In this document: piece by piece, positions 45,340 through 61,627 of the stretch | How positions within the stretch are numbered: the first letter of the stretch is position 1 | Layout of the letters: every line of letters begins with the position of its first letter | DNA from: Eledone cirrhosa | Lineage: Eukaryota | Direction of reading: 5' to 3' | Assembly: GCA_964016885.1 (NCBI GenBank) | Contig: OZ024746.1 | Location: forward strand, 30,132,001 to 30,196,000 | DNA: 64,000 bases | Notes under the pieces: model-generated | The model's database searches: none | What the model saw: only the letters and a program-made list of their open reading frames with translations | Told to the model about the DNA's origin: nothing | Made by a program: the position numbers and the translations under genes

Positions 45340-45434
45340 CTGTATAAATGAAGTAATTCCGTCGGAAAAGTCCAGGAAAAAGGAGTGCTCTGTGTAGGTT
45401 ACAGAGCTTAATAGTTATATATATAATAAAATTA

Positions 45435-45536
45435 GTCCTTCATCAGTGATCTTCCAACTTTCATTGGTATTTCATCGCTTTAAAAATCATATACCTCTAG
45501 TTGGCGCGAGCAATAACAAATAAAGTTATTGGGACA
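45435..45536 (-). ncRNA. Permuted K-turn hammerhead-like motif (version 1)
   Basis: Minus strand: gtcc..tcgc g ccaact aGA ggtaT A tgatttt taaa gcga T GAAA tacc aatGAa agttgg aagatca CTGATGA A ggac. Confidence 0.7.
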
Positions 45537-46260
45537 AGTAAAATAGGGTGAAACGAGCGAGGCATGTAAACAAACACTGACGAAGGACTAATTTTATTCA
45601 TATGTAACCCATGTGCAACCACGCAGCGCTCCATTTTTCTCATATTTATATTTTTTCCTCGGCTGCGATTGTCTGTTTCTTTCTTACTCTCTCTCTCCTC
45701 TTTTTACCTCCTCTGCCAGTCACACTCTCTCTCTCTGCTGGTCTCTTCCTCACACTTCCACTCACTCACTCTCTCTGCTGGTCTCTTCCTCACACTTCCA
45801 CTCACTCACTCTCTTCTTCTCCCCCTCTCTCACTTCCTCCCGTTTCACCTGTGTGAAATCCTTTTCTCGCTCACATCTCACCCATGTCGGATGGTCTATA
45901 TCTCTCGCCCATGAATTCACCAATCTTAAGCTTACAGATTTCATGTGCTTGTCTCTTCCTATCTTTCCGTTGCCATACCATCTTTGTTTCTTCACATGTC
46001 TCGCTCGTTTCACCCTGCTAAGTCGTTGGGACACGTAAATAAAGGGGACACGAGAGTGTAAACAAACAAAGATGGTGAAGCAACGAAAAGTGAGGAAGAA
46101 GGAGTCAAGTCCAAAATGTTCATGAATATAATTTCGGTGAAATCGTGAACGAGAGACCGAATTTATATTCATGAAAATTTTGGACTTGACTCCTTCTTCC
46201 TCACTTTTCGTTGCTTCATCATATTTGTTTGTTTACACTCTTGTGTCCACTTTATTTACG

Positions 46261-46371
46261 TGTCCCAACGACTTTTTTTAGCCGTTGCTCGCACCAACCG
46301 GAGGTATATGGTCTTTAAAGCGATGAAATACCAATGATGGTTGGAAGATCACTGATGAAGGACTAACTTTA
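46261..46371 (+). ncRNA. Permuted K-turn hammerhead-like motif (version 1b)
   Basis: gtcc..tcgc a ccaacc gGA ggtaT A tggtctt taaa gcga T GAAA tacc aatGAt ggttgg aagatca CTGATGA A ggac. Confidence 0.72.
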
Positions 46372-46427
46372 TTCATATGTAACCCATTCGCAACCACGCA
46401 GCACGTTTATTCTCATATATATATATT

Positions 46428-52206: not shown

Positions 52207-52214
<8 letters not shown>

Positions 52215-52645
52215 TTCACATATTTATATTTTTTCCTCAGCTGCGATTGTCTGTTTCTTTCTTACTCTCTCTCCTCTTTTTACCCTCTCTGCCAGTCACA
52301 CTCTCTCTCTCTGCTGGTCTCTTCCTCACACTTCCACTCACTCACTCTCTTCTTGTCGGATGGTCTGTATCTCTCGCCCATGAATTCACCAAGCTTAAGC
52401 TTACAGATTTCATGTGCTTGTCTCTTCCTATCTTTCCGTTGCCATACCATCGTTGTTTATTTACATGTCTCGCTCGTTTCACCCTATTTTACTTGTCCCA
52501 ATAACTTTATTTGTTATTGCCCGCACCAACTAGAGGTATATGATTTTTAAAGCGATGAAATACCAATGAAAGTTGGAAGATCACTGATGAAGAACTAATT
52601 TTATTCATATGTAACCCATGTGCAACCACGCAGCGCTCCATTTTT

Positions 52646-52650
<5 letters not shown>
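52207..52650 (+). mobile_element. One full ~429-bp monomer of the permuted-HHR element
   Basis: Starts and ends with ctccattttt (52207, 52636). The same junction is read through at ~45630-45660. Flanked by (CT)n and (TA)n. Confidence 0.8.
52494..52596 (+). ncRNA. Permuted K-turn hammerhead-like motif (version 1), predicted cut after 52540
   Basis: ggtaTA 52535-52540, GAAA 52557-52560, CTGATGA 52584-52590. Confidence 0.7.
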
Positions 52651-55338: not shown

Positions 55339-55995
55339 TATGAAAATATGGCTGAGAAGAATACTGCTGGTTGCACATGGATAACATGTTATAAAATGAG
55401 TCCCTCATCAGTGATTTACCAAACGATCATGGGTATTTCATCGCATTAAAAATCATATACCTCACGTTGGAGCGATAATAACTAAAATAAGTTATTAGGA
55501 CAATAGAAACGCGTAAAGCGAGTGAGACAAGTAAACAACACAGGGGGAAGCTAACCGAAGATGGAAATAAACACAAGCAACATAGTTATTCTTTCAGCAT
55601 AAGCTGTGTGAATATATGAGCGAGTCAGAAAATAGACCTTTCGCTAGTGAATCCGGTGTTAGAAAGAAAGAAAACCGTTTTCTCAGCGAACGGGAGGAAG
55701 AAAGAAGGGGAGAAACAGGGACTGAGTGAGTGGGAGTGCGAGGAAGAGGTCAGTAGAGAGAAAGAGTTAACTGACATGGCAGAGGGGACGAAAGAAAGTA
55801 AGAGAAACAGAGAGAACGAGGGAGCAGTAAGAGAGAAAGAGAGAAACACAGAATTGAAGTTTGGGTAAATATATGAAAATATGGGTGAGAAGAATACTGC
55901 TGGTTGCACATGGATAACATGTTATAAAATGAGTCCCTCATCAGTGATTTACCAAACGATCATGGGTATTTCATCGCATTAAAAATCATATACCT
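55339..55995 (-). mobile_element. 533-bp monomer plus ~125-bp terminal redundancy, permuted-HHR element (version 2)
   Basis: 55341-55462 is repeated at 55874-55995. Non-coding, with (TA)n on both sides. Confidence 0.82.
55399..55502 (-). ncRNA. Permuted K-turn hammerhead-like motif (version 2), partial second copy at 55932-55995
   Basis: gtcc..atcgc t ccaacg tGA ggtaT A tgattt ttaat gcga T GAAA tacc catGAt cgtttgg t aaatca CTGATGA G ggac. Confidence 0.7.
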
Positions 55996-60529: not shown

Positions 60530-60634
60530 GTATATAAACCGATTTATATATATATATATATATATGAATGAAGAATGGTGGGCTGCGTTGTTGCGAACAT
60601 GAACATATGAATAAAAATAGACCAAGAGATAAAA

Positions 60635-60738
60635 TGTCCTCATCAGTAGTCTGCTGATTATCGTTGGTATTTCGACGCATTAAAGACTAGATACCTAAAA
60701 TCAGTGCGAGCGAATAACTCAATTAAGTTATTGGGACA
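60635..60738 (-). ncRNA. Permuted hammerhead-like motif (version 3, AUC site, G-C at 10.1-11.1)
   Basis: tgtc..tcgc a ctgatt tTA ggtaT C tagtct ttaat gcgt C GAAA tacc aacGAt aatcag c agacta CTGATGA G gaca. Confidence 0.72.
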
Positions 60739-60869
60739 GTGGGAAAACAGAGGGAAGGAAACAAACACATGGTAGTATGCAACGTAAAGAGAGGAAAATA
60801 GAGACAAGTCAATGAATCCTCGTGGCTTAAGTCCGACAAATCAAATTGACGAGTAAATTATAGACACGA

Positions 60870-60953
60870 AGGAAATTATAGACTTCGGCGAGAGAGGATA
60901 TTAGGGATAATAGAATTTATTGGCTTTAACATGTTTCTTGTGCTTGTATATAA

Positions 60954-60987
<34 letters not shown>

Positions 60988-60992
60988 TATAT

Positions 60993-61070
<78 letters not shown>

Positions 61071-61150
61071 CAAGCACAGAAACATATGTTAAGGCCAATA
61101 AATTCTACTATCCCTACTATCCTCTTTCGCCGAAGTCTATATATTTCCTT
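60870..61150. repeat. Fold-back with ~80-bp arms around (CA)n/(TA)n/(TG)n
   Basis: tagacttcggcgagagaggata.. vs ..tatcctctttcgccgaagtcta. Confidence 0.85.
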
Positions 61151-61189
61151 GGTGCTATACTTACTTATACTATATATATTATATATATA

Positions 61190-61224
<35 letters not shown>

Positions 61225-61232
<8 letters not shown>

Positions 61233-61627
61233 ATACTTTGGGAGGGTCATGTTGCCAATAAGAAACACACGCACCAGTTGCTTTCACTTCAATTTAATTT
61301 ATTATATATTTATAAATTTACAAATTTATAAATTTCTGGTTGGTTGGTTGGTTGGTTGGTTGAAAAATGGCTAGGTAGGATAGAAGAAAGGAAAGGCACA
61401 GAAACGAAGAAAGAAATCCCCAGTCACTGAAGAGGTCACAGAGTGTGTGACGAAAGAACTATGACTATATATATATAAACAAACTATCTGGTTGTGGAAC
61501 CAACCAACCAACCAGAAATTTATAAATTTGTAAATTTATAAATATATAATAAATTAAATTGAAGTGAAAAGCAACTGGTGCGTGTGTTTCTTATTGGCAA
61601 CATGACCCTCCCAAAGTATAACAATAT
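61225..61627. repeat. Inverted repeat (~128-bp arms) enclosing an HHR
   Basis: 61225-61353 vs 61498-61627. Confidence 0.9.
61422..61466 (+). ncRNA. Type I hammerhead with minimal stem III
   Basis: agtca CTGAAGA g gtcac agagtgt gtgac GAAA gaac TA tgact. Confidence 0.85.

Follow-up and report, generated by a model that had tools for sequence, protein, structure and literature searches.

On the minus strand of the window, the 64-kb stretch of DNA analysed here, positions 55339-55995 show a period of 533 nt and an overlap of 124 nt, in which 123 of 124 positions are identical, as the preliminary description had proposed when it recognized a 533-bp unit with a redundant part. The final unambiguous base of this element is 55342, and beyond it there is only (TA)n. 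The same spacing of 533 nt was encountered in 47 tandem pairs, a tally made over overlapping loci. The longest internal ATG ORF of the unit has 63 aa, in agreement with the earlier observation that these elements lack ORFs, and a tRNA was looked for in the unit and none was found. The unit carries the three blocks of a hammerhead ribozyme in an unusual order (Table 1). The 5' end of the element (55995) is placed 7 nt upstream of the first predicted cut, and the 5' truncation has removed helices a, b and c and the 5' strand of helix d of the upstream motif. Since this motif has lost its 5' leader, only the downstream ribozyme motif of this copy is complete. By eye, an alternative short hairpin could also form at 55396-55408 (-) over the end of the CUGAUGA block in this subfamily, and it might slow cleavage.

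Table 1. Features of the element at 55342-55995 and of the related elements in the window (positions are those of the window).
Feature	Position	Strand	Remarks
Non-autonomous element, almost certainly PLE-type; partial tandem, 5'-truncated, (TA)n on flanks	55342-55995	(-)	One 533-nt unit plus ~121 nt
Predicted cut-to-cut monomer, candidate circle	55456-55988	(-)	533 nt
Complete type-SGC hammerhead motif with 5' leader	55400-55501	(-)	Predicted cut 55456/55455; covariation
Helix a	55497-55501 with 55400-55404	(-)	
Hairpin b	55477-55496	(-)	
Helix c	55472-55476 with 55440-55444	(-)	
Helix d, 5' strand	55465-55470	(-)	
Block S	55450-55461	(-)	
Block G	55432-55444	(-)	
Block C	55400-55417	(-)	
3' tail up to the fixed 3' end	55342-55399	(-)	Internal AUAU run meets (TA)n target
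Upstream motif copy, S/G/C blocks intact, leader missing	55933-55994	(-)	Predicted cut 55989/55988
S-G-C motif	45440-45495	(-)	
S-G-C motif	46303-46358	(+)	
S-G-C motif	52535-52590	(+)	
S-G-C motif	55405-55461	(-)	
S-G-C motif	55938-55994	(-)	
S-G-C motif	60640-60695	(-)	
Second subfamily, minus-strand motif copy fused to plus-strand copy	45414-46016	mixed	Motif copy 45440-45495; unit junction read through ~45640
Third subfamily, 5' part inverted	46025-46420	(+)	Inverted repeat 46025-46269; motif 46303-46358
Second subfamily, 429-nt internally deleted unit	52207-52650	(+)	Motif 52535-52590
Fourth subfamily, with inverted copy of 5' part at 61057-61162	60565-61162	(-)	Element 60565-60960; motif 60640-60695

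The motif keeps the hammerhead core CUGAnGA, GAAA and UH, with the cleavage-site block first, the GAAA block second and the CUGAUGA block last (S-G-C), and the direct stem II between blocks G and C amounts to 0-1 bp. Helix a is formed by the 5' leader with the nucleotides following CUGAUGA, and helix c with those preceding GAAA; the leader also folds on itself (hairpin b) and extends stem III (helix d). In the predicted fold, each strand of the usual stem II pairs with this leader; the resulting four-way junction comprises helices a, b and c and would be closed by the tandem G-A pairs of the core. Helices a, b and c abut with zero unpaired bases in the subfamily of the element at 55342-55995, and in the other subfamilies they are shifted by 1 base and show a single 10.1:11.1 pair. 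Because a direct multi-pair stem II is absent, the motif represents a type-SGC variant that falls outside the described alignments.

To evaluate this fold, which was derived from the same sequences, we used 23 copies out of 124, having less than 95% similarity. In this set, 94.6% of the cells are paired and 17 of the 33 pairs have changed on both sides, with covariation in stems I, a, b, c and d; none of 500 shuffles reached the observed level, a control that related sequences can beat without any structure, and slid controls were 23-46% paired. Stem I is 95.7% paired, with three of its five pairs changed on both sides, and the 10.1:11.1 pair is present in 16 of the 23 copies only. Stem III is invariant in this family (family 1), where the search pattern fixes it, and it has different, complementary strands in a second family of the genome and in seven Naiad contigs. 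At the boundary of stem III and helix d, a 3-nt bulge is followed by a G and an A that are invariant in all 23 copies; opposite them, 21 copies have an A and 17 a G, a signature that we take to fit the k-turn consensus. Helix d is predicted to prolong stem III across a k-turn of the box C/D-like kind, so that the chain would bend back in the direction of stem I. That the motif is a structured, hammerhead-derived RNA can be considered practically certain.

Six S-G-C motifs belonging to four subfamilies are present in the window, which bears out the earlier estimate of at least four, and a looser motif pattern gave 4 matches in the window against 0.11 expected. The automatic parse of the leader gave no result for two of five window motifs, i.e., the one at 60.6 kb, whose register is shifted as judged by eye, and the mutated one at 52535-52590, which carries single changes in helices a and c. 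The 429-bp unit at 52207-52650 and the unit junction read through at ~45640, both reported in the preliminary description, are real, but the alignment over 507 columns with a fuller copy in another locus (L061) reveals an internally deleted variant of a ~505-nt unit. Tandem spacings over the fetched loci are mostly 502-637 nt, with one of 445 and one of 949 nt. An Rfam scan of the window yielded no hammerhead among the 150 matches listed of 333 weak ones, nearly all of the weak matches being microRNA models on microsatellites, and microsatellites also dominated the output of generic repeat finders. Other short repeats of the window contain PLE-type hammerhead cores in canonical order at 449 (-), 676 (+), 53947 (-), 53955 (+) and 61427 (+); the last one is the terminal repeat of a Neptune-like element also present in L067 and L069, and its inverted partner lies at ~61230-61340. 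A further repeat family with a canonical-order core is found at 914 (-), 20445 (-) and 56419 (-), where GAAA is altered; it is intact in L184.

Searching the whole genome (3.0 Gb) with the exact S-G-C pattern gave 7,789 matches, and the reversed-pattern control gave 0, so that the motif does not occur by chance; a count of copies across the genome had been proposed in the preliminary description. The subfamily of the element at 55342-55995 accounts for 446 exact 32-mers, and its best 41 full-length matches (the window itself aside) are 97-99% identical. The motif region occurs 3 times in 200 kb of fixed-interval samples and 14 times in 819 kb of loci fetched otherwise, roughly ~15-17 copies per Mb. 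A looser pattern had 423 matches genome-wide (control 0), mostly from family 2, which has different, complementary strands in every helix and the same architecture, with no unpaired nt at the junction in L084. Family 2 (L081-L110, e.g., L084) is non-coding and has a short conserved 3'-tail motif in common with family 1, and L111-L122 contain older, decayed relatives of the motif that constitute a third sequence family.

The ends of the elements were analyzed at the first 100 of the 446 32-mer places, requiring only blocks G and C, which resulted in 82 rows, 68 of them with one exact motif each. The 3' end falls at a single position in 65 of the 82 rows, ~114-117 nt past the predicted cut, where the internal AUAU run abuts (TA)n; in five rows, a second, mutated motif follows and the end is found one unit further on. 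The 5' ends are spread across 1,000 nt. Because the 3' end is fixed, describing the copies as circularly permuted, as was done at first, was an overstatement. Fixed ends bearing terminal inverted repeats had been named as the mark of another class of element; the 3' end is indeed fixed, but the 5' ends vary, and no terminal inverted repeats were seen in the element flanks read. These flanks show an insertion bias to microsatellites, with (TA)n as target, as had been recognized for the copies of the window, and the arrangement of the ends agrees with that of PLEs as described in PMC8557442. The family includes partial tandems, in which unit length is constant, inverted 5' parts and a five-motif array (L065) whose four full units have 3-6 nt differences among them and 15-18 nt with respect to the window unit. 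Fold-back junctions between inverted copies near the predicted cut site were observed in L081/L082 and at G000:C1:26994980-26995054, and segmental duplications carry element copies in L061/L062 (~98% over 7 kb) and L431.

The search for this architecture was extended to Naiads, using one full Naiad protein (P0001) and 84 loci on contigs of metagenomes and genomes (80 retained from 113, plus 4). P0001 and L251 show an N-terminal GIY-YIG domain and a downstream RT, and L252, L260 and L262 an N-terminal GIY-YIG domain only, several of these domain matches being below the Pfam cut-off. A descriptor allowing all permutations (six block orders) was run on the 51 Naiad contigs that continue for 250 nt or more beyond the ORF on its 3' side, and it matched the 3' region of seven, always in SGC order and with a direct stem II of 0; the antisense control gave 0 matches, and the shuffles 4 in 255, none of them SGC. 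All seven, two of which are close relatives, can be parsed with helices a, b, c and d and 0-1 unpaired bases at the junction, although hairpin b has a branch in L252 and a mismatch interrupts it in L260. No match was found in the other 44 contigs, of which the 36 inspected are without the core heptamer, and some motif-less contigs reach (TA)n, so the motif is not universal in Naiads. Rfam returned nothing at gathering score on 20 Naiad contigs, and a relaxed leader descriptor produced false positives at scores ≤22 (4 of 10 sense matches, inside ORFs, and 5 of 168 shuffles). The last 90 nt of L246, a Naiad 3' end reaching (TA)n, contain a hammerhead-like GAAA block with a deviant core, possibly another variant.

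According to the accessible part of the Naiad paper (Craig et al., 2021; PMC8557442), Naiads have no canonical hammerheads, and its 'HHR_core' and 'HHR_half_core' cases stand there without explanation; several Naiads, including Naiad_Ovul, are labelled 'HHR_half_core' in the supplement. The reading of this supplement, done by eye, covered the whole of part 24, CTGATGA places 1-7 and 23-52 of 62, and places 1-16 for three other cores. The SGC order with the four-way junction was recognized by eye at eight supplement places (Naiad_Obim, Naiad_Ovul, three coral-type records and three others), and one record of the ctenophore part gave a weak fit. The octopus Naiads (Naiad_Obim and Naiad_Ovul) have the 8-nt loop of hairpin b and the k-turn signature in common with the window family, again by eye. 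Six other Naiad records (near parts 13-16), mostly from nematodes, appear by eye to be of type CSG with full stems I-III, a type for which the consulted part of PMC10085705 reports only two natural sequences. The family probably descends from a Naiad 3' end, and we consider a Naiad origin very probable; that it is a PLE-type family is almost certain.

Three peptide patterns for an intact Naiad had 0 matches in this genome, and a fourth one matched 11 places, of which 9 resemble Naiads, all in broken form. Protein searches also found only broken remnants, 67-78% identical to one another at the best-aligned parts; these searches provide lower bounds, and one of the protein searches ran with a stricter first filter. 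The resemblance of the remnants to the published Naiads of octopuses would point to an octopod as host. None of the fetched remnants has a convincing 3' motif, and two matches of the relaxed descriptor in them were rejected as unconvincing. As to the autonomous PLE with the same motif for which a search had been proposed, the architecture occurs 3' of the ORF in the seven metagenomic Naiad contigs, but only broken Naiads were found in this genome. Since the family copies are young and the Naiads recovered are all broken, the help would have to come from another PLE or from a Naiad missing in the assembly.

Several candidates for this partner were discarded. L061 and L062, with motifs 2.9 kb apart, are a duplicated region containing an unrelated PLE with a C-terminal endonuclease and its own canonical hammerhead; the Neptune-like elements next to motif copies contain a canonical type I hammerhead of their own, and (TA)n lies between them and these copies; and all 50 GIY-YIG loci inspected, of 150 listed, have C-terminal endonucleases. 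The PLEs with C-terminal endonucleases have open frames of up to 1,096 aa in this genome. In one such family (L134, L147 and L170), the last ~20 nt form a pyrimidine tail resembling the 3' end of family 1, and an intact CUGAnGA core was not found in the 900 nt after the ORF of L134 and L170. This family is a possible partner in trans. Local alignment of four family tails with 13 PLE 3' UTRs showed no convincing match (best z 3.4, gappy), and no Naiad relatives were found in the viral contigs searched.

In our view, it is rather probable that the element at 55342-55995 is a non-coding Penelope-type retroelement, likely derived from a Naiad 3' end, whose 533-nt unit carries an S-G-C hammerhead predicted to self-cleave, having the fold described above and the following circle cycle. 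A transcript spanning two complete motifs would be cut twice, and the resulting 533-nt monomer would be ligated into a circle. A PLE endonuclease/RT acting in trans would then nick (TA)n and prime at the internal AUAU run, which would fix the 3' end, and the RT would copy 0.2 to ~4.7 turns before the 5' end is joined via TA microhomology or inversion. A linear RNA that had been cleaved beforehand at the terminal site would give rise to the short ~110-nt class of copies, with 5' ends just past the cut. Judging from the sequences, the constant unit length and the L065 array would favour a circular template, and on balance, we regard circles as a candidate route by which the family may well spread.

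The same element and ribozyme might also work without circles, if cleavage were slow, partial tandems and arrays provided linear read-through templates, and the cut only trimmed 5' flanking host RNA. Type-SGC ribozymes are in fact slow (0.007-0.19 per min; Table 1 in PMC10085705). To count the 5' ends, 10 overlapping loci, including the L065 array, had been excluded beforehand, and five of the 82 rows were dropped (one at a locus edge, one of a duplicated pair and three without a 3' end of their own or inverted), leaving 77 rows. As many as 66 of these copies extend upstream through the terminal cut site, and therefore, their template was re-ligated or uncut; according to the 5'-end distances, just 12 of the 77 have two complete motifs and could be potential sources. 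The two motif copies of an element have 4 variants in common against 55 private to one of them, and for this reason, tandem identity is no proof of rolling-circle copying. The 533-nt unit, folded as the predicted circle, is 38% paired (z -2.1, 40 shuffles) and is not rod-like. Owing to this weak pairing and to the few shared variants, linear read-through retains a certain, although low, probability; against it, a circular template most simply produces tandems of constant unit length and an array of five motifs whose internal identity is higher, and canonical animal retrozymes do form circles (PMC7229834).

The 5' ends also bear on cleavage. Eleven of the 77 are located 2-14 nt downstream of the predicted cut at the terminal site, against 2.3 expected from the frequency of ends in the following 200 nt (Poisson P 3e-5; binomial 2e-4), in an interval chosen knowing the cut site. 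There are no ends at 15-24 nt downstream and at most five in any other 24-nt interval. A 5' end ~7 nt upstream of the cleavage site, which the preliminary description had pointed out, is correct for the copy at 55995, but it is not typical, given that only 1 of the 77 ends lies 0-24 nt upstream of the terminal cut and the ends cluster downstream. At the second cut site, there are two ends just downstream and four of 77 at 0-24 nt upstream, with no clear pile-up, and in family 2, 4 of 29 ends fall by eye in the equivalent 14 nt. The pile-up fits templates beginning at the predicted cut and would be an indirect sign of cleavage. It sits on a TA-like 4-mer, where most of the piled-up ends fall, and thus, microhomology contributes to it.

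Microhomology could even account for the whole pile-up if the motif were no longer catalytic and served as a structured 3' recognition element for the RT/endonuclease or for a k-turn-binding protein, as the absence of a direct stem II and the many Naiads without the motif might suggest. However, ends are less numerous at other TA-like sites and absent from the TA run immediately upstream of the terminal cut; in addition, the catalytic-core residues are all kept across families with entirely different helices, and of 93 unrestricted parses, a single one has G as the residue at the cut. We consequently find a non-catalytic motif improbable and predict with good confidence that it is self-cleaving. 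Least probable of all is that the ribozyme folds in a canonical, unknotted form as a dimer, across neighbouring units or two RNAs (e.g., block G of unit 1 with blocks S and C of unit 2), because, even if tandem units permit canonical block orders across repeats, covariation is blind to intra- versus inter-unit pairing and PLE hammerheads reportedly cleave as dimers, all the strands lie within ~105 nt and 68 of 82 rows have a single exact motif. Moreover, single SGC RNAs cleave in cis (PMC10085705), and Naiad_Ovul is listed without a pLTR in the available records.

If these predictions are correct, non-circularly permuted hammerheads, so far limited to environmental sequences of unknown hosts and one weak bacterial candidate, are placed in animal genomes at thousands of copies. 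We think it somewhat probable that, in nature, these hammerheads reside in genomes chiefly within Naiads and the non-autonomous elements derived from them, the marine lineages carrying a catalytically active SGC form with a leader-splinted four-way junction (k-turn-bent in octopods) and those of nematodes the CSG form, and that the units described here outlived their parent and spread as circles via another PLE. This would offer a possible answer to the puzzle of the Naiad paper, i.e., no canonical hammerhead and yet unexplained half-cores, and the split architecture explains why standard descriptors and Rfam miss the motif. A core active with a four-way junction in place of stem II would widen the known hammerhead fold, and the k-turn would make cleavage potentially protein-controlled. 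In the literature, we found no report of a tested hammerhead core with such a junction, nor, in a coverage mostly of open papers, of permuted hammerheads in Naiads or animal genomes.

The ribozyme can be compared with type SGC, described in 2023 from metatranscriptomes as HRIMA-1 and variants (Eckert et al., PMC10085705). Both have the S-G-C order, the CUGAnGA/GAAA/UH core, stems I and III and a short S-G linker, but, in the part of that work consulted, theirs form stem II directly between G and C and none comes from the genome of a known organism, whereas here there are 0-1 bp, a leader-splinted four-way junction, a predicted k-turn within the extension of stem III, and a copy number in the thousands in an animal genome. 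The form called new in the preliminary description is therefore known as to its block order, and the novelty is the split stem II with the four-way junction and its occurrence in an animal genome and in Naiad PLEs. The elements resemble Naiads (Craig et al., 2021; PMC8557442) in their (TA)n targets, partial tandems, inverted 5' copies and 3' tail, and in the motif architecture at the 3' end of Naiad_Obim, Naiad_Ovul and the seven metagenomic contigs, and they differ in having no ORF; permuted hammerhead forms are not described in the accessible part of that paper. With animal non-LTR retrozymes (Cervera and de la Pena, 2020, PMC7229834; Li et al., 2026, bioRxiv 10.64898/2026.07.22.740005), they share a short non-coding repeat unit containing a single hammerhead, copies ranging from monomers to multimers, a low GC content and a tie to PLEs. 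Those retrozymes, however, have type I hammerheads and well self-paired circles, while the present elements, whose circles are putative, carry a type-SGC variant (in the window, no GAAA follows the C block), are weakly paired and are mostly 5'-truncated single copies in (TA)n. The family, which had been called retrozyme-like, is so in its way of working as a non-coding tandem repeat, but not in hammerhead type, as it carries a new SGC hammerhead variant common to some Naiads.
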